Virus record (IMG/VR): IMGVR_UViG_3300049058_000014
Location: 1 to 36,005 of that record
Source of the DNA: a virus
Lineage: Duplodnaviria; Caudoviricetes
Strand: one strand, 5' to 3'
Length of the DNA: 36,005 bases
Shown here: piece by piece, positions 940 to 9,224 of the stretch
Position numbering within the stretch: position 1 is the stretch's first letter
Layout of the letters: each line of letters begins with the position of its first letter
Made by a program: the position numbers and the translations under genes
The notes under the pieces: model-generated
What the model saw: only the letters and a program-made list of their open reading frames with translations
Databases searched by the model: none
What the model was told of the DNA's origin: nothing

Positions 940-1130
940 CAGAATCAGATAGGCAGTTTGACTGTGCTGTATGTGATGAGCAGATAGTTATCCCTGATGA
1001 CGTGGAGGTCTCAGAATTCGCTAACTGGCTGGAAGAAGAAGGGTGGAGTCGTTGTGGTACTGAAGATGATGGGCAGTGGATGTGCGAGGAGTGTTGCGAT
1101 AGCAGTGAAGCCGGCGACGAGGGGGACTAA
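936..1130 (+). CDS. small acidic Zn-binding protein
   Basis: CAVC...CEECC motifs; ATGA coupling. Confidence 0.65.
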   Translation: MTESDRQFDCAVCDEQIVIPDDVEVSEFANWLEEEGWSRCGTEDDGQWMCEECCDSSEAGDEGD

Positions 1131-1135
1131 AGTCC

Positions 1136-2140
1136 ATGGACCTAACACAAGTACCCGAACTGGTAACTAACGCTGACATAGACATTAGTAAGGCGGTAAT
1201 TATAGATGCTCATCTATTGAAAACCTATAGAGCATGCCAGCAGAAGTTCAACCTGTTCGAGTTACTTCACATTGTTGGGCGTAGCCGTAAAGCAGCGCCT
1301 AGTTTCGGTATTGCTATGCATGAAGGGATTGAGCACTTCCGTAAAGCCAAGATGGCTGGCAAGAAGTACACTGAAGCATACAAGATCGGGGCTGAGGCGC
1401 TGCTTGCAGCCTACAAGAAGTTCATGCCTAAAGAGAGCATGATGGAGGTAATGCAGGATGATCGTCGCTCTCCAAAGAATGCCTTGCGGATCTTTACAGG
1501 TTATTGCGAGCACTACGAGCCGGTTGCCCTCAAGTTTTTGTACGTCGAGTCTCCCTTTGCCTTGTACCTCGGGCCAGTGGAGACTATCAATGGTCCTAAA
1601 GACGTTGTCTACGTGGGGATCATCGACGGAGTCTTTGACATGGGCGGTCAGATCTATGTTAACGATCTCAAGTCTACGGCTTGGACTATAAGTGAGCATT
1701 ACCTGGAAGGCTTTAAGATGGACCAGGGCCTCCTGGGCTACATGGTCGCAGCGCGTGAGTTACTAAATGTAGACACACATCAAGCCATAGTCCATGCAAT
1801 GTGGATTCAGGCCGAGGCCAAAGACCCTAAACGTGCTAAAAAACTGGATGAGTATTTCCATACCAAGGAGTTGTATTGGGAGGACTCGCAAATAACGGAG
1901 TGGCACCAAAATGTACTTAACACTGTTGCTGAGATTGAGATGCGTAAGGCAGACGGTAAGTGGATCATGGACTTCGGACAGAACTGCGGAGCTTTTGGCG
2001 GTTGTGACTATCGTGCTATTTGTAGCGCTCCTCCTGCCATACGCGCTCAACTAATCAAAATGGACTACGACTTCGGTATGTGGTCCCCTCTAGAAGATGA
2101 AAGGATGCAGAAATTAGATGCCTCAAGCGCAAGTATGTAA
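1136..2140 (+). CDS. PD-(D/E)xK nuclease (RecB/Cas4-like phage exonuclease)
   Basis: FGIAMHEGIE, VESPF, GIIDGV, VNDLKST, QGLLGY motifs; one N-terminal and three C-terminal Cys (C..GGCDYRAIC), as in Fe-S staple nucleases. Confidence 0.85.
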   Translation: MDLTQVPELVTNADIDISKAVIIDAHLLKTYRACQQKFNLFELLHIVGRSRKAAPSFGIAMHEGIEHFRKAKMAGKKYTEAYKIGAEALLAAYKKFMPKESMMEVMQDDRRSPKNALRIFTGYCEHYEPVALKFLYVESPFALYLGPVETINGPKDVVYVGIIDGVFDMGGQIYVNDLKSTAWTISEHYLEGFKMDQGLLGYMVAARELLNVDTHQAIVHAMWIQAEAKDPKRAKKLDEYFHTKELYWEDSQITEWHQNVLNTVAEIEMRKADGKWIMDFGQNCGAFGGCDYRAICSAPPAIRAQLIKMDYDFGMWSPLEDERMQKLDASSASM

Positions 2141-2324
2141 TCACCCTAATTTAATTAGTACGGCCTACCTCAAACTCATTAAGTGCACCACGTGTGGTAC
2201 TTCTTGGGCTCATAGTAAGGATGGCCATTCAGGAACAGTTTGGATCTTAAACGAGAAAGGAGGTGACAAGCGAAATGATGCTAATGTTTCATCGCAAGGT
2301 GCTCAAGGCCGACGACTCAGTTGA
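2118..2324 (+). CDS. small hypothetical protein, possible Zn-binding
   Basis: CNH...CTTC motif; fills the gap between nuclease and next gene. Confidence 0.4.
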   Translation: MPQAQVCNHPNLISTAYLKLIKCTTCGTSWAHSKDGHSGTVWILNEKGGDKRNDANVSSQGAQGRRLS

Positions 2325-2550
2325 AACAACTATTGAGTTGTTCCGAGATGGTGGGCGTGATGATGTAGGAACCGTAAGGTTCCCTGATAAGCATACCTGG
2401 ACGAAGTTCTGGGGTGCTATTCAGCGTGGATCTATCCATATCCAAGATCTAGAAGTACATATGGAGAACGTACCAGATGATAGTGAACCAAGCAACCAAG
2501 GTGAAAACCTTGGAGCAACTGGCAAAGGAGCATCAATTGAAACTAAGTGA
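2275..2550 (+). CDS. hypothetical protein
   Basis: Perfect SD AAGGAGGTGA at 2257-2266 points to ATG 2275 rather than GTG 2263. Confidence 0.65.
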   Translation: MMLMFHRKVLKADDSVETTIELFRDGGRDDVGTVRFPDKHTWTKFWGAIQRGSIHIQDLEVHMENVPDDSEPSNQGENLGATGKGASIETK

Positions 2551-3274
2551 AATGCTAGAAGCGGACCCAATCCGCGCCTTAGTTTACGGAGTAAGCGGGA
2601 CGGGGAAGACGACTTTGGCTGGTCTACTAGCGGCTCAGCCAGAGCTGCGTCCCGTTTACTTCTTCGACTGGGATATGCGCCTTGCAGGACTGCAAAGTAG
2701 GATTCCTAAGGAATTGTGGGAGTTCATTGAAGCTGATACCTACCGAGACAAGAATGTGCCTGGTGAGGCCTTCACACTGATGGAGGCAAAGATCGAGCGC
2801 CTCGAGTCGTCCGGTTTCCGGACAGCGGTAGTTGATTCAATGACCTTTGCAATGCAAGGGATTATGGCTCGAGTACTTTTTTTAGACGGCAACAAACTAC
2901 CAACTTCAACCCCTCAGCTGCAACACTACATGCAACAGCAGTCATTAGTAACCAGTCTAGTTAGCCGACTATGCGCTAAGAAGATGAACATTATCCTAAC
3001 AGCGCATGAGGACACGTCCAAGGACGAGATCACTGGCCGGCTGTTCAAGGCCATTGACCTAACTGGAAAGTTAGCCCAGCGCATACCTGGTTACTTCAAT
3101 GAGTTTTGGCATACGGAAGTAGTCCAGCAAACTGGTAAGGACCCTGAATTTAAGGTGCGGACGCGCAGCGATCAGGTGTATGCAGCTAGAACCAGTTACA
3201 AAGGCCTGCAAACATTGGAAGACCAGGGTAAAATCTGGGAAAAGATAATCAAGGAGAGAGGAGGAAACAAGTAA
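2477..3274 (+). CDS. AAA_24 / Sak4-like P-loop ATPase (recombination)
   Basis: Walker A YGVSGTGKTT, Walker B AVVDSMT, ILTAHE and GKLAQRIPGYFNE motifs. Confidence 0.85.
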   Translation: MIVNQATKVKTLEQLAKEHQLKLSEMLEADPIRALVYGVSGTGKTTLAGLLAAQPELRPVYFFDWDMRLAGLQSRIPKELWEFIEADTYRDKNVPGEAFTLMEAKIERLESSGFRTAVVDSMTFAMQGIMARVLFLDGNKLPTSTPQLQHYMQQQSLVTSLVSRLCAKKMNIILTAHEDTSKDEITGRLFKAIDLTGKLAQRIPGYFNEFWHTEVVQQTGKDPEFKVRTRSDQVYAARTSYKGLQTLEDQGKIWEKIIKERGGNK

Positions 3275-3600
3275 TGCTATCACGATTCTATGCAGAACAT
3301 TGGTTAGACGAGAACGCTAGGCCTCAGGGCGGTACAGCTTGGGGACCGGGATTTGCAATTAGTTGGCAGCATGGGCCCTTGGGGAAGATTGAATCTAAAG
3401 ACCGTAGGGAGCCTAATGGTGCCTTTGTTGAGACAGTCATTGCGGCTGTAGTCAATAGAATCAGCCACTACCAACAGTATTTTCCTTGCCAGGAGAACGC
3501 TGAGGCGTTGGACTATCTCAACCATGCACTAGAAGCACTAAACCGGAGAACACACCGCCGCATTAATGAGGGTGTCGAAGGTACGCACGAAGGCTCCTAA
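3274..3600 (+). CDS. tad1: Tad1-family anti-defence sponge protein
   Basis: ISWQHGP...NGAFVE...NRISHYQQYFPCQENAEAL...ALEALNRRTHRRINEGVEGT follows the Tad1 pattern (FQxG, RLxxFQ, ENAxA, RxxxR..V.G). Confidence 0.8.
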   Translation: MLSRFYAEHWLDENARPQGGTAWGPGFAISWQHGPLGKIESKDRREPNGAFVETVIAAVVNRISHYQQYFPCQENAEALDYLNHALEALNRRTHRRINEGVEGTHEGS

Positions 3601-3679
3601 AAAGGTTTAGCTTTTTTTTTCGCTCCGCTTACTAACTACGCCCTACCGGGTCTAACCCTGTTTCTAGGAGGAAACAATT

Positions 3680-4084
3680 ATGCCAACATTAGACATTAAC
3701 CTGGATGAGGTCAAAGAAAAGCCTCGTATGCCAGCAGACAAATACTTCACCTTCATGATTAAGCAAGCGACGGTGGAGATGGCTAAACAAGCCAACAAGA
3801 ATACTGGCAAGATCGAGCCGTATATCAAGGCCGTTCTGTCGCCACTTGAGGCCGATTGGAATAGCTATACAGTCTATCATAACTGGAGCCTCAGCCCTGG
3901 GGCCTTGGAGTCTCCTGAGCCAGCGTTCTCCATTCGGAAGTTCTTCTTGGTAGTTGGTCATGAGTGGGGTAGCGACGGTAAGTTCTCGACTGAGGACTTG
4001 ATGACCATTAAGTTCATCGGTACTGTCAAGTACAAGGAAGGCGATAGCAGGCCTAATTTGGATAAGGTGCTAAAGGCAGAGTAA
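3680..4084 (+). CDS. putative ssDNA-binding protein (DUF669/OB-fold-like)
   Basis: Beta-rich 134-aa protein downstream of the AAA_24 ATPase, the usual position; strong SD AGGAGG. Confidence 0.55.
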   Translation: MPTLDINLDEVKEKPRMPADKYFTFMIKQATVEMAKQANKNTGKIEPYIKAVLSPLEADWNSYTVYHNWSLSPGALESPEPAFSIRKFFLVVGHEWGSDGKFSTEDLMTIKFIGTVKYKEGDSRPNLDKVLKAE

Positions 4085-4096
4085 AGGCTAGATAAA

Positions 4097-4384
4097 ATGA
4101 GCGGTTATCCATTCTCCGACGGGCCAGAGTTCAACGGCTCTGACTATGAACCACAATTTGATAAGAAGCGCCTTTCAGGTCAGTTGCTCAGGGTCTACAC
4201 CCTCATGGCAGATGGCAAGTGGCGTACATTATCAGAGATAGCCGATTCCACAGGTGATCCTGCTGCGTCTGTATCGGCGCAGTTAAGGCACTTACGGAAG
4301 GCGCGCTTTGGTTCATATGAAGTGCAGAAGCGTTCTAGGTTCCGTCGGAGTGTTGGGCTCTTTGAGTATCGCTTAAAAATATAG
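4097..4384 (+). CDS. winged helix-turn-helix protein
   Basis: DGKWRTLSEIADSTGDPAASVSAQLRHLRK followed by a beta-wing ending FEYRL. Confidence 0.8.
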   Translation: MSGYPFSDGPEFNGSDYEPQFDKKRLSGQLLRVYTLMADGKWRTLSEIADSTGDPAASVSAQLRHLRKARFGSYEVQKRSRFRRSVGLFEYRLKI

Positions 4385-4389
4385 TCTTT

Positions 4390-4634
4390 ATTGCCTTGCC
4401 CTGGGATGACACTACCAGCCCGCCACTACACACGGCGTCGCTCCGGTAGATTACAGTTTAATCCTTAAGGGCAATGTAGCTGAGGGGTGCGGTTTCAGCG
4501 TTTACATAGGAACCTCTAAGTTCATTAGGAACTTTGATATCAAGGACGTGGTGTGTAGCGGATGCAGGTTGAAGTGCTTGTCGAAAGCGCTCCCTGATGA
4601 CGTGGGAAAGCCGTGGTTCCGTCCCCTTGGCTAC
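4390..4634 (+). ncRNA. candidate structured non-coding RNA or leader (two domains plus pseudoknot)
   Basis: About 300-nt gap with no ORF in the track and at least seven mutually compatible helices containing G-U pairs on the + strand, including 12-bp 4476-4487/4623-4634 and loop pairing 4426-4433/4551-4558. Confidence 0.6.
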
Positions 4635-4681
4635 TTCATTATTGTTGTTTTACTAAAAAATAGAAGGAGTGCGCAGCGCGC

Positions 4682-6067
4682 ATGAAAATTGCAATTAAGG
4701 ACATATTTATACCACCTGATAGACAACGTAAGTCTGTCAATGAAAGCAAGATTGCTGAACTGGCAGTAAGTATTCAGTCTCATGGATTGTTACATTCACT
4801 AACCGTGGCGCCACTTGACACTGTCCGCTTTCCGGACGCGCCAAGTCATTTACCCTACCAACTAGTAGCTGGCTATCGTCGTCTACTTGCGCACGCCTTC
4901 ATGAAAATCCCTGAGGTGGAGGCTAACTTCCGTGAGCAACTAACCGATTTAGAGCGTGAGGAGATTGAACTCGATGAGAACCTCGTACGTGAAGAACTCA
5001 GTTGGCAGGACTCCGTTGCCGCTAAAGCTCGCATTGCTCAGCTTCGCGGTAGGATTTATGGTGATGGTGTTAGAGAGGTGGCCGAGCACTTGGGGGAGGC
5101 AAAAAGTGTTACGGCTGACGACATCAAACTCGCGAAGGCTATGGAGATACTACCAGAACTCAAGGGCAGTAAGAACAAGCATCAGGCAATGAACAAACTC
5201 CGGATGATTGAGAATAGGGCTCGCTTGCATGATCTAAGCGAAATCCATTCTAAGATGGTCCGGGAGGTCAATACTGGTCGTGTAGGTGATGTGAGCACTA
5301 GAGTGCACTTAGGAGATGCCCTTGAGATTGTTACTAGATGGAACTCTGGCATTGCTGGCTGCGTGGTTACAGATCCGCCTTACGGCATTAATCTTGATGA
5401 AGGTGCGACGAAACGTGACTCCTACCATCCGACTATCTATCACGATGACACTTATGACATTATGGACCTCACTAGTCGTATTGCTACTGAAGCTTTTCGA
5501 CTACTAAAGGAGGACGCCCATGCCTACTTCTTCTTCGATATTAAGGCGTATGCCAAAGTCTACAAAATGCTCTCAGACGCCGGATTCAAAGTTGACCCAA
5601 TGCCACTCCTCTGGGTTAAGCCTGGGCCTGGTCAAGCTAATCACCCTGAGAGTCGATGGGCATCTGGGTACGAAGCCTGCTTTTTTTGCCGTAAGGGTAA
5701 CAGACAACTACTCAAGCAAGGACAATCAAACGTCCTTCCTCATGATCCGGTTCCACCTGGTAGAAAAATCCATCCAGTCGAGAAGCCCGTATCCCTACTA
5801 CGGCAACTTATCGAATCTTCAACAGTTCCTGGAGAAGTGGTTGTTGACTTCTTTGGCGGAAGTGGAAGCACTGGTGAGGCTGCAATTCAGACAGGCCGTA
5901 ATTTCCTTATATGTGAGAAAGATGCCGCCTATCATGCAGGGATCATCGAACGCCTCAACAAACTTATACAATCTCCTACTAGCGAGGGAGATAAGCCTGA
6001 TGGCAGTGGAGACGAGCCAGCTTCAAGGTTCGACCCCCTCGGAGGAGATGAAGCAGAGGGCGAATAG
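4682..6067 (+). CDS. ParB-like N-terminal domain fused to a beta-class N6-A/N4-C DNA methyltransferase
   Basis: ParB motifs LVAGYRRL and ENLVREEL; MTase TDPPYG precedes HPVEKP and DFFGGSGST. Confidence 0.9.
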   Translation: MKIAIKDIFIPPDRQRKSVNESKIAELAVSIQSHGLLHSLTVAPLDTVRFPDAPSHLPYQLVAGYRRLLAHAFMKIPEVEANFREQLTDLEREEIELDENLVREELSWQDSVAAKARIAQLRGRIYGDGVREVAEHLGEAKSVTADDIKLAKAMEILPELKGSKNKHQAMNKLRMIENRARLHDLSEIHSKMVREVNTGRVGDVSTRVHLGDALEIVTRWNSGIAGCVVTDPPYGINLDEGATKRDSYHPTIYHDDTYDIMDLTSRIATEAFRLLKEDAHAYFFFDIKAYAKVYKMLSDAGFKVDPMPLLWVKPGPGQANHPESRWASGYEACFFCRKGNRQLLKQGQSNVLPHDPVPPGRKIHPVEKPVSLLRQLIESSTVPGEVVVDFFGGSGSTGEAAIQTGRNFLICEKDAAYHAGIIERLNKLIQSPTSEGDKPDGSGDEPASRFDPLGGDEAEGE

Positions 6068-6090
6068 TAAACTAGAGGATGTACTAAGAA

Positions 6091-6372
6091 ATGTATCTAT
6101 CAAAAGTAGACAAGGAAAGGCTAGACCCACTCCTGGAGAAGGTGATCTTAGTGACACCCCAGGAGCTGGGGTACGGCTACATTAAACTAACCCTTAATCA
6201 CCTGGACCTCGTGAGTGGTAAACTCTCAGATTCTCAGCTGTCCAATATAGTTGGAGTCATGGAGCGGGCTAAAAGTGAGTTTATTGAGCGTGTAGTTAGA
6301 GTCAATGATCTGCATGTTAGACGAGTTACAGCAGACTCATTCCATGACTTCATCCGAAGGCGGAATATCTAG
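6091..6372 (+). CDS. hypothetical helical protein (resembles DUF6899-type phage proteins)
   Basis: NIVGVMERAKSEFIERVV motif; abuts the polymerase start. Confidence 0.6.
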   Translation: MYLSKVDKERLDPLLEKVILVTPQELGYGYIKLTLNHLDLVSGKLSDSQLSNIVGVMERAKSEFIERVVRVNDLHVRRVTADSFHDFIRRRNI

Positions 6373-8844
6373 ATGGAAGTTAAGCTCGGATACGAAATTC
6401 AGTGTCCGCCTACAATCATTCCTGGAGCTACGATCACCTTCATTGGTGAGAGCCCAGGCCATCAGGAGGTACTTAAACGTGAGGGATTCATTGGAGGCTC
6501 CGGAAGCGTACTTCGTAAGATTTGCTCAAGTGCAGGTATTGACTTTGAGCGATGCAACCGCACTAACGTTGCCAAAAGGCGTCCGCCAGCTGATAAGTTC
6601 GGGATCTTCTATCAAGATCCGAAGCGAACAAAGCCTACAGCAGAGTTATTGTGGTGGCGTCAGTTGTTACTTGCTGAGCTTAACGCGCACAAACCTAATG
6701 TCGCAGTTGCGCTCGGTAACGAAGCTCTACGGACGCTCGTAACTTATGCCGATAGTATTACGAAGTGGCAAGGGAGCTTACTTGATAGTGACACCGTGCC
6801 CGGCCTCAAAGTCTTGCCTTGTGTTCATCCGGCCTGGATCATGCGAGACAACTGGCATTACTATTACATTACGATCAGGTATTTTAAGCGGCTCAAGGCA
6901 GAGTCCGTGTCTCCACGTCGCGTACTTGGTGAACCAGTTGACCAGTTCTGGATTCAGCCTACCTTTGAGGTGTGTGCCGACTGGCTACGCCATATTAGGG
7001 ATAAGCCAAACTTGTGGTGGTTTCAGGATATTGAAACGAGAGGAGATACAATAACTTGCTATGGATTATGGGTTGAGGACAGACCGAATGAGGCTCTATG
7101 TGTGCCTATCCATACAACAACAGGTCCTTACTTCGACTTACATCAGGAGACCCAACTTTGGAGGTTGCTATCTGAAGCGATGGCTGCTAATCCGAATTGG
7201 TCCAACCAGAACGGAGTTTACGACCTCGACTATCTGCTGGACTATGGCTGTGAACCCTCGGGAGTACGTTTCGACAACATGCTGGCGATGAATGTTCTCT
7301 ATCCCGAGTTCCCTAAAGCGTTGGACTTCCAAGCTAGTATTTACACTTACTACCCCTATTACAAGGATGAAGGCAAAACCTGGAAGAAGAAAACTCCTGA
7401 TCGTGACGTCTGGAATTACAACTGTAAGGACATGGTCACTACTCCCAAAACAGCCCATGCCTTAGTTAGAGACCTAAAAGAACATGACCTATTCGAGACG
7501 TTCCAACGGCGCAGCCAACGGTTCTACCCTATTGCTATCGAGATGCAACGTAATAAGTTAATGCTCCACCGGCAGTGGCACAAACAATTAGCCCAATACT
7601 TACAGGACGAAAGGGACAAGAAGCAAAGTGAACTCAACCAGCTCGTCGGCTACGAGATCAATGTCAAATCTACGAAGCAGATACAAGAGCTGCTATTTAC
7701 AAAACTTCGTCTCCCTGTTAAAAAGAAACGTGGTAGTGATTCGTTTACCAGCGATGAGAACGCACTGCGAGAATTACGTGCTCAGTACCCGCAGGTGCCA
7801 GCACTTAAACTCATCATTGAAGTTCGGCACTTGCGAACAAAGGAGTCAAATTACATAAATGTGGAGTTTGATAATAGTCCTGACGGTGATCTTTATCTTG
7901 GCTATACTGCTAACATACCTGGCACTAAGAGTGGCCGTTGGAGTTTCTCTTCTAGCCCAAAGTGGCGTGGCAGTTCGCCCCAAACTATTTCTAAAGTTAT
8001 GCGTCTCATGTACCAACCTCCTCGTGGCAGTGTGTTTTGGCAGAGGGACCTTTCGCAAGCTGAAGCTCGGGTTGTTGCTTGGCTCTCTAATTGTAAGTTT
8101 CTCCTTGATGTTTTTGCTAGCCCTATCAAAATACATAAGTTGGTTGGTGGTCGTATCTTTAAGAAACCTCCAGATGCCATAATTAGTGATGGAATCGAGT
8201 ATGATATTAGCAAGCGGGTAGTGCACGCATATAACTACATGATGCAATACCGAAAATTGGCTGTTACTGCAAACGTGAGTCTTGCCTTCGCACAGACCAC
8301 ATTGGAGGGCTATGGAAAAGAAGTACCAGAAGTTGCTGACTGGCACCAAGCAGTCAAGCGCACCGTTATCTCCAAAGGGTATCTACGAACCCCGATGGGG
8401 CGAATTAGACAATGCTACAAAGCGTGTGGTGCACTTGCACACACTGGCCAGCTGCCTGATGAAATCCTTAGGGACCTTGTGTCTTATGTCCCCCAATCAA
8501 CTGTTCCTGACGTGCTCAACGAAGGAATGTATAAGTGCTGGGAGTGGCTCCCCTGGGTCAAGTGGCACCAGCAAGGTCACGACAGCTACTTGGCCTCTGG
8601 CGACCCCAAAAGAACGCACGAGTTCTATGAATTCTCTGAAGAAGCTGCTAACGTCCATTTCCTCATCAACGGCAGGGATTGTCATATCCCTGGTGAGTTC
8701 CAGTGGGGCTACCTCTGGGGCGCGATGCTCTCGTATCGTCCTGGTGAAGATACGTCCTATGATGCATGGCAAGCACGTGCTACCGCAGAAGGATACTTCG
8801 ACGAAGCCAAAATCAAAGAGAAGCTCTATGCCCTTAATTTCTAA
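6373..8844 (+). CDS. polA: family A DNA polymerase with N-terminal family-4 uracil-DNA glycosylase-like domain and 3'-5' exonuclease
   Basis: UDG: IGESPG, FIGGSG, TNVAKRRPP, HPAW. Exo: DIET, NGVYDL, YNCKD. Pol: TKSGRWS, motif A DLSQAEAR, motif B KRVVHAYNY, motif C GHDS. Confidence 0.92.
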   Translation: MEVKLGYEIQCPPTIIPGATITFIGESPGHQEVLKREGFIGGSGSVLRKICSSAGIDFERCNRTNVAKRRPPADKFGIFYQDPKRTKPTAELLWWRQLLLAELNAHKPNVAVALGNEALRTLVTYADSITKWQGSLLDSDTVPGLKVLPCVHPAWIMRDNWHYYYITIRYFKRLKAESVSPRRVLGEPVDQFWIQPTFEVCADWLRHIRDKPNLWWFQDIETRGDTITCYGLWVEDRPNEALCVPIHTTTGPYFDLHQETQLWRLLSEAMAANPNWSNQNGVYDLDYLLDYGCEPSGVRFDNMLAMNVLYPEFPKALDFQASIYTYYPYYKDEGKTWKKKTPDRDVWNYNCKDMVTTPKTAHALVRDLKEHDLFETFQRRSQRFYPIAIEMQRNKLMLHRQWHKQLAQYLQDERDKKQSELNQLVGYEINVKSTKQIQELLFTKLRLPVKKKRGSDSFTSDENALRELRAQYPQVPALKLIIEVRHLRTKESNYINVEFDNSPDGDLYLGYTANIPGTKSGRWSFSSSPKWRGSSPQTISKVMRLMYQPPRGSVFWQRDLSQAEARVVAWLSNCKFLLDVFASPIKIHKLVGGRIFKKPPDAIISDGIEYDISKRVVHAYNYMMQYRKLAVTANVSLAFAQTTLEGYGKEVPEVADWHQAVKRTVISKGYLRTPMGRIRQCYKACGALAHTGQLPDEILRDLVSYVPQSTVPDVLNEGMYKCWEWLPWVKWHQQGHDSYLASGDPKRTHEFYEFSEEAANVHFLINGRDCHIPGEFQWGYLWGAMLSYRPGEDTSYDAWQARATAEGYFDEAKIKEKLYALNF

Positions 8845-8858
8845 GGAGGCATCACCTA

Positions 8859-9224
8859 ATGCTAATTAGAGTTGCGGTTTACCGCATGGCCTTCGCTATT
8901 ATGGAGTTTGAGGGTTACAGGAAAGGTAGTGTTAGCTACAAGAATAATAACCCTGGAAACATTAAGTTCGCCGGCCAAACTGGAGCTACTGGCGGCGACA
9001 CTCAAGGCCATGCCAAATTCACTAGCTTCCAGACTGGGTGGGATGCCTTAATTAATCAACTAACCATGATGTTTGATGGTAGGTCTAGAGTCTACAAGAA
9101 GGACATGTCTATAACTAAGGTCTTTAGTATTTATGCTGAGGGCAATAGTAGCCAGTACGCCATATTTGTAGCGAGTAGGCTAGACGTTACCCCAGACACT
9201 AAGTTGAAGGACTTAATAGGATGA
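8859..9224 (+). CDS. lysozyme-like (NNNPGNI family) putative peptidoglycan hydrolase
   Basis: AIMEFEG...NNNPGNI...AKF...GWDAL...YA pattern; SD AAGGAGG. Confidence 0.65.
   Translation: MLIRVAVYRMAFAIMEFEGYRKGSVSYKNNNPGNIKFAGQTGATGGDTQGHAKFTSFQTGWDALINQLTMMFDGRSRVYKKDMSITKVFSIYAEGNSSQYAIFVASRLDVTPDTKLKDLIG

Follow-up and report, generated by a model that had tools for sequence, protein, structure and literature searches.

New ribozymes and riboswitches usually come from new RNA folds in which a covarying pseudoknot is combined with a multistem junction and with unpaired bases that are invariant, and a pseudoknot together with a multistem junction has been described as a mark of demanding function (PMC5737381). 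Among described systems, the pistol ribozyme has a six-base-pair pseudoknot to its P2-P3 junction, the residues G40-C41-G42 and a G-U cleavage linkage (PMC6154101); the hammerhead ribozyme carries the core words CUGANGA and GAAA flanking stem II (PMC10085705); the THF-I riboswitch has three pocket uracils, U7, U35 and U42, at its loop-receptor (PMC6614920); ROOL RNAs average 581 nt (PMC5737381); and T4 gp32 nucleates on a pseudoknot that has an unstructured A/U-rich stretch behind it (PMC535899). The phage element analysed below, 202-245 nt long, has points in common with several of these systems. Its structural family is apparently new, not in Rfam 15, while its job may be of a known kind.

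The window, the whole stretch of 36,005 nt that was analysed (IMG/VR record IMGVR_UViG_3300049058_000014), is the record of a podovirus-like phage with portal, adaptor and major head matches; a search for a close cultured relative found none. Its left arm is a replication module in which genes for a PD-(D/E)XK exonuclease, a Sak4-like annealing ATPase, an ssb-like protein and a winged-HTH protein are followed by a 297-nt gap (4385-4681), and then by genes for a ParB-methyltransferase, a UDG-fused family A polymerase and a primase-helicase. A reading made from the sequence alone had called this the largest gap in the genome and had placed a pseudoknotted two-domain RNA in it. The gap is the largest in the window, but a sister record (G001) has one of 748 nt in a part absent from the window. 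The ssb-like gene, predicted to encode a single-strand-DNA-binding protein, had no match in Pfam or PHROG, and its nearest ESM Atlas clusters are DUF669 (13-37% of members). Among the 48 window proteins and 17 from the missing part we found no integrase or reverse transcriptase, and hence no evident partner of the retron type.

Searching with the methyltransferase and its alignment, we recovered 3 close viral loci and at least 15 close metagenome loci (27 of 64 metagenome parts). Logan, ENA and JGI also contain about 100 clusters of the methyltransferase at 45-77% identity. Among these 18 loci and the window, 12 hold the full element, three hold part of it (L037, L038 and L044), and four contigs (L040, L041, L046 and L048) stop short of ssb and lack the element. 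All 11 loci that hold the clade's ssb-like gene carry the element, as does one more locus, and there is one copy per genome in all four records. Domain 2 identities are 53-73% in a generous global alignment, except among L004, L034 and L035 (90-93%), which leaves about 10 independent lineages. As far as record names and run labels show, the sources are soil, rhizosphere, groundwater and sediment. The structure descriptor was tuned on these same loci, and two held-out loci, L045 and L047, were missed by covariance models even with filters off; L045 is counted on the descriptor, synteny and sequence shared with L039, and L047, whose P1 is poor, is tentatively a member. The most divergent copy, that of L047, is flanked by a 20-nt direct repeat (95%; L047:818-837 and 1132-1151) that is absent in the 7 other loci checked. 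In L044, a host rbfA fragment (Pfam RBFA; L044:106-440) sits directly against the element's last 30 nt; as rbfA looks truncated at either end, an assembly chimera is more probable than an attachment site. The window polymerase (6373-8844) is a family A DNA polymerase that carries a uracil-DNA glycosylase domain at its N terminus, and its pairing with the adjacent ParB-fused methyltransferase is kept across the clade and in distant relatives.

The element appears so far to be confined to one uncultured soil and groundwater phage clade. Three DNA-pattern scans of IMG/VR (8, 55 and at least 120 loci, the last over 24 of 64 parts) gave no member outside the clade among the matches listed; five descriptor passes among the at least 120 loci were rejected, being near the chance rate, lying in open frames or a tRNA-like cluster, and giving no match to model R2. 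Neither the descriptor nor R2 matched in 47 distant polymerase loci or in distant methyltransferase loci, three element sequences found nothing meaningful in BLAST searches of phage or plasmid collections, and a scan of GTDB gave no element and only two weak ParB matches.

The features of the locus, in window coordinates, are as follows.

3680 to 4084, + strand: ssb-like gene (DUF669-like), the constant upstream neighbour of the element.
4097 to 4384, + strand: small winged-HTH gene with weak HTH_5/HTH_20 matches, between ssb and the RNA in this phage only.
4390 to 4475, + strand: domain 1, an extended irregular hairpin that is bulged on its 3' side and has an apical loop rich in A; a long stem is present in 12/12 loci.
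4425 to 4433, + strand: apical loop of domain 1, proposed from the sequence alone as a kissing strand; a perfect 8 bp in this phage only.
4476 to 4487, + strand: P1 5' strand, pairing with 4623-4634; double changes in 4/4 scored P1 pairs.
4488 to 4494, + strand: invariant unpaired U4488 and the P2 5' strand (4489-4494), which opens with G.U (9/12) or G.A (3/12).
4500 to 4508, + strand: conserved linker GUUUACAUA, with G, U, A and A invariant in a 10-sequence MAFFT alignment.
4509 to 4514, + strand: pseudoknot 5' strand GGAACC; positions 1-5 are Watson-Crick in 60/60 cells.
4515 to 4607, + strand: variable inner hairpin domain, 49-98 nt across loci, containing the G/U-rich candidate kissing strand 4551-4558.
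4608 to 4614, + strand: conserved A4608 and the P2 3' strand (4609-4614), from the homologue alignment.
4615 to 4620, + strand: pseudoknot 3' strand GGUUCC, directly after P2, from covariation.
4623 to 4634, + strand: P1 3' strand, within which the RNA contigs of all six runs end (4626-4631).
4682 to 6067, + strand: ParB-N6/N4 methyltransferase gene, the usual but not constant downstream neighbour, without RNA cover in six runs.

Domain 2 thus runs in the order P1, U, P2, GUUY linker, pseudoknot strand, inner hairpins, A, P2', pseudoknot strand, 2 nt, P1'. The nine short helices of the sequence-only reading all pair at the positions it gave. Inside domain 2, however, its core is wrong: the helix AACCT 4511-4515/AGGTT 4566-4570 is excluded by the covarying pseudoknot 4509-4514/4615-4620, and the irregular stem 4489-4510/4593-4614 conflicts with the homologues, in which 4489-4494 pairs with 4609-4614. 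The nested and the corrected fold lie less than 1 kcal/mol apart. Folding energy says little for this phage's copy of the element, the 245 nt being barely above chance on the + strand (z -1.42; 21 of 200 shuffles as good) and at z -1.13 on the - strand; domain 1 alone reaches z -2.8, a value inflated by boundaries taken from the fold. Across the loci, z for the whole element on the + strand is negative in 12/12 (-0.4 to -3.3; 40 shuffles each), and the - strand is lower in 3.

The case for the fold is carried by covariation, which lies in a pseudoknot that the sequence-only reading had missed. Its two strands read GGAACC/GGUUCC, GGGACC/GGUCCU, GGGGCC/GGCCCC, GGAGCA/UGCUCC, AAGAC/GUCUU, AGUGCG/CGCACU, GAGAC/GUCUC, GGCUAU/AUAGCC, GUGAC/GUCAC and GAAGGC/GCCUUU in different loci, with 2-4 pair types at each of positions 1-5 and a sixth position that pairs in 9/12. 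When the strands were dealt among 10 lineages, none of 200,000 trials reached the observed 55/60 (the mean was 28.8), and the chance of such a helix arising is 0.4-1.8% per locus. Because the descriptor had demanded the pseudoknot pairs, we repeated the count on a sequence-only alignment (11 rows, three of them out of register): pairing holds in 85% of cells, double changes occur at 12 of the 16 pairs, and 0/500 shuffles match, in a shuffle that ignores relatedness, with slid partners pairing in 36-53%. Compensatory changes were thus seen in three helices on an alignment not fitted to structure. P2 is Watson-Crick at positions 2-6 in 57/60 cells, and U4488, G4489, C4490, G4492, U4494, G4500, U4502, A4506, A4508 and A4609 are invariant in the MAFFT alignment of 10 loci. 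The gap therefore encodes a genuine RNA fold, and the proposal of a two-domain, pseudoknotted + strand RNA holds as a conserved element with GGAACC/GGUUCC as its covarying pseudoknot; the + strand is probably the sense one.

Two partners considered for the GUUY linker, a local stem 3' of the pseudoknot strand and the AAAC of domain 1, each fit some loci by eye without covariation, and were set aside. CTACACA as a DNA operator was also rejected, its 10 copies in 47 kb being near chance. The inner hairpin region contains GACG or UACG in 9/12 loci (4536-4553 and 4591-4609 in the window); ACGU is self-complementary, so dimerisation is conceivable.

The loop-loop pseudoknot that the sequence-only reading had put at the centre of the structure fares less well. 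The 8-bp complement of CTACACAC (4426-4433) and GTGTGTAG (4551-4558) is exact, with a duplex energy of -10.1 kcal/mol and p about 0.01-0.03 in this sequence. GTGTGTAG, which had been taken as otherwise unpaired, is only partly so in the constrained ensemble, with a probability of being unpaired of 0.37-0.72. Among homologues, by contrast, a Watson-Crick version of at least 6 bp occurs in only 1/11, and the best partner of the loop, though often found at a comparable position within a G/U-rich stretch, is imperfect; the combined Fisher p is 0.011 with this sequence and 0.064 without it. In this phage the helix is perfect and can coexist with the corrected fold, so there may be two pseudoknots here, the loop-loop helix being a plausible second contact rather than the defining feature. 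Domain 1 itself has z values of -0.65 to -6.1 across the 12 loci, with boundaries chosen from folds, and A[AC]AC near its apex in 10/11.

Known RNA families did not account for the fold. Group II intron domain 5 has an AGC triad at the base of a hairpin, with its strands in 5'-3' hairpin order; the element has AGCC in 6/12 loci, with the strands in reverse order. RNase P RNA carries CR-I and CR-V words around P4, patterns found in 0/12 loci, where Rfam was also negative. Twister and HDV-like ribozymes, defined by class-specific double pseudoknots and catalytic bases, were compared through Rfam, which gave no match, and by eye. Both hammerhead core words occur only in the window (1/12), 5 nt apart. 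In line with the novelty claimed from the sequence alone, Rfam 15 (4227 models) gave 0 matches at E<=1 in the window, only 2 chance matches at E<=5 (E 1 and 3.7) in the 11 homologous loci, both outside the element, and none at gathering score in four related records totalling 117 kb, and the ARAGORN gene model gave no tRNA or tmRNA. Literature searches returned no description of the element. A set of 10,006 viral RNA candidates of 29-151 nt (PMC10690425) had 0 matches for four motifs and two contig ids in the part of its supplement that was searched, so a fragment may be listed elsewhere in it.

We used this stretch to find six rhizosphere metatranscriptome runs, from one year and maybe one campaign. 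In all six, the RNA contig ends at the base of P1 (4631, 4631, 4626, 4630, 4631 and 4630), with adapter letters joined to the contig end in four; two DNA runs continue through 4626-4631. Contigs in 6/6 runs bridge 4390, 4488 and the entire element with no loose end inside, which speaks against a constitutively self-cleaving ribozyme. Element-bearing contigs start at scattered positions (3890-4278, or 110-500 nt ahead of domain 1), and other pieces reach back to 3744, indicating that the element is the end of a longer RNA. They cross the winged-HTH gene into the element, so the two are co-transcribed. Elsewhere in 1000-9000 there are only four short pieces at depth 3-4, the element region being the main covered part in four runs. 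All five adapter ends, presumably identified correctly, are oriented as expected for + strand RNA in a dUTP-type library, if such was the protocol. The element is expressed in soil, as part of an RNA that includes upstream genes. Contigs cannot prove an RNA end, strand or level, and missing cover, beyond 4631 or elsewhere, is not proof of absence.

Position ties the element to ssb rather than to either gene that flanks it in the window. It lies 3' of ssb in 11/11 ssb-bearing loci, with domain 1 starting 6-28 nt past the ssb stop in 10/11. The winged-HTH gene, by contrast, is present in 1/11 of these loci, with no tblastn match in the others, and the ParB-methyltransferase follows directly in 7/12, unrelated small ORFs intervening in 5/12; the loci thus give no support to a link with the former gene or to a fixed link with the latter. 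We found no promoter or terminator consensus at the element, no sigma-70 promoter nearby, and no short GC hairpin with a U-tract in any of the 12 clade loci (1 kb before the methyltransferase); at least 5 U in the first 10 nt after P1 occur in 2/12. An A/U-rich stretch follows the element in the window (4635-4660), the spacer being as short as ~7 nt in some loci. In distant relatives with the same gene order, which lack the element, a terminator-like plain hairpin lies within 62 nt after the ssb-position gene in 4/13, the ssb identity of these genes being assigned by position and by eye, and two annotated distant phages have only 101 and 73 nt at the element's position.

Since soil RNA stops right at the end of the fold, the element likely caps and protects the ssb transcript, and we tentatively favour the reading that the pseudoknotted core forms a nuclease-resistant 3' end stabilising the ssb(-wHTH) message. 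The transcript would run from the upstream genes into the element and stop at the base of P1, its end being made by a cut in the A/U-rich spacer and 3'-to-5' trimming up to P1, or else by structure-driven termination. P1, P2 and the pseudoknot would stack around the invariant U and the GUUY linker as a compact fold, on which domain 1 may dock. The message of the SSB-like protein, needed in bulk, would be kept stable, while those of the downstream methyltransferase and polymerase would be cut off or decay, giving unequal expression within the replication operon. The covarying fold, its fixed place after ssb, the variable downstream gene and the RNA ends at P1 all fit this reading. So does the plain terminator at the ssb position in distant relatives, where the clade has none; 9/13 distant loci, however, lack a terminator there. 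Like an intrinsic terminator or a 3' stabilising stem-loop, the element lies where an RNA ends, behind a gene in high demand and ahead of genes for enzymes; unlike an intrinsic terminator, it has 100-150 nt, a conserved pseudoknot among them, inside its closing helix. Should mRNA stabilisation be its only role, it would still be a new means for a phage to reach unequal expression within an operon, where relatives use a plain terminator.

One hairpin would suffice for such a role, and a 200-nt fold with invariant unpaired bases suggests something more, whether a partner, a ligand or chemistry. This excess of structure keeps several other readings alive. The element might be a stable trans-acting RNA that is transcribed together with ssb, set free afterwards and used as a scaffold or decoy for a phage or host protein, as has been proposed for other ornate phage RNAs; we consider this possible but unlikely. 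Genes are inserted on either side without loss of the element, each genome has a single copy, the element region dominates the RNA cover, and the pseudoknot and multistem junction are of the kind taken to mark demanding function (PMC5737381). Like ROOL and GOLLD, it is phage-borne, multistem, pseudoknotted and of no known function (PMC5737381; bioRxiv 10.1101/2024.12.08.627333), although it is less than half the size, lacks tRNA neighbours and is found in one clade only. Arguing against release are the scattered contig starts, with no sharp 5' end at domain 1, the lack of pairing between the element's two ends and the missing promoter. Any stable trans-acting RNA cut from the operon would likewise end at its closing helix, and a free 245-nt RNA could coexist, lost in library preparation.

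Somewhat less probable is a new catalytic or ligand-sensing class, in which P1, P2 and the pseudoknot would form a pocket around the invariant U, the 80-nt hairpin would dock on it, and the whole would let SSB, a metabolite or a host nuclease decide where the replication transcript ends. We know of no other pseudoknotted, two-domain switch at a 3' end in a phage operon, so this would be the first. The element is directly testable: it comes in about 10 independent sequence solutions, natural samples show a sharp RNA end, and 200-245 nt is a size within reach of probing and cryo-EM.

In its narrower form, as a riboswitch-like sensor whose P1/P2/pseudoknot junction binds a small molecule at the invariant U and sets read-through or translation of the methyltransferase and polymerase genes, the idea is improbable. 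On a mapping of our own, the helix order resembles the THF-I loop-receptor arrangement, with a long-range pseudoknot that joins an internal strand to the 3' side of the P1/P2 junction and a conserved U on the 5' side (PMC6614920); an RNA truncated after the fold is what an OFF state would give, and a ribosome-binding site lies close behind the element in several loci. Few bases are invariant, however, and the other two pocket uracils are not conserved: a U stands before the pseudoknot strand in 1/12 and directly after it in 6/12. There are no folate genes and no expression platform, and the downstream gene varies. The leader role suggested from the sequence alone is weakened further because the RNA ends at the element, not in the downstream gene, with no conserved terminator or switch helix.

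There is little to recommend a feedback operator by analogy with T4 gene 32, in which the SSB-like protein would load on the fold and change how its own message decays or how the next gene is translated. The link to ssb is tight and an A/U-rich single strand follows the pseudoknot, as in T4 (PMC535899), but the T4 operator is ~28 nt and 5' of its own gene, far smaller than this 3' element, and the spacer shrinks to ~7 nt in some loci. The STAXI motif, also a pseudoknot near ssb genes, is a short one repeated two or three times (PMC2864571), whereas the element has no repeat and no Rfam match.

We hold out equally little hope for a new ribozyme class with its cleavage site at, or close to, the invariant U|G that separates P1 from P2, whether it acts conditionally or in trans with docked domain 1 as substrate. 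Read as a circular permutation, a mapping we infer, the helix order is pistol-like, with an outer helix, a short junction, an inner helix, and then a 5-6-bp pseudoknot strand between the helices, preceded by A residues (PMC6154101); the pseudoknot sits at this place in 12/12 loci, and the invariant unpaired U lies beside a G.U or G.A pair. The pistol G40-C41-G42 is missing, though, GCG occurring in 0/12 and a first-base G in 8/12; G precedes the U in 7/12, no consistent hairpin closes the pseudoknot loop, the 49-98-nt inner domain and the 80-nt hairpin are extra, and the RNA contigs are unbroken.

ColE1 RNA II is the model for a replication primer RNA. A primer or origin RNA for the phage family A polymerase would suit an element with a defined end within the replication module, but is very doubtful given that no conserved A/T-rich or repeat element lies behind it and that the sister record has a more origin-like, repeat-rich non-coding region elsewhere. 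Least probable of all is that there is no functional RNA, only chance pairing, a DNA-level element or a small ORF, a reading that has in its favour the weak single-sequence z, a descriptor tuned on these loci and the count of only ~10 lineages, and that is largely refuted by the compensatory changes in three helices, the G.U pairs kept, the RNA end at the helix base, and inner lengths that fall in all three frames with no ORF shared among the homologues.

The whole window record lacks the 6-bp palindromes GGATCC, TTCGAA, ACCGGT and TTTAAA, consistent with restriction avoidance. The 748-nt non-coding stretch of G001 (L235:7811-8558) separates divergent early and late genes and is much richer in ACGCG/CGCGT words, at ~22 per kb, than other parts of the genome, making it a candidate promoter, origin or packaging region. 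Nearby (L235:7017-7337 and 7371-7866) a 105-nt inverted repeat (74%) encloses a long A run, and the arms of another, of 29 nt (93%), flank one gene. Two related-looking small lysine-rich early proteins, encoded at 5-328 of the window and at L235:7448-7810, have no family match; the window protein is 71-75% identical across the clade, above any neighbour.
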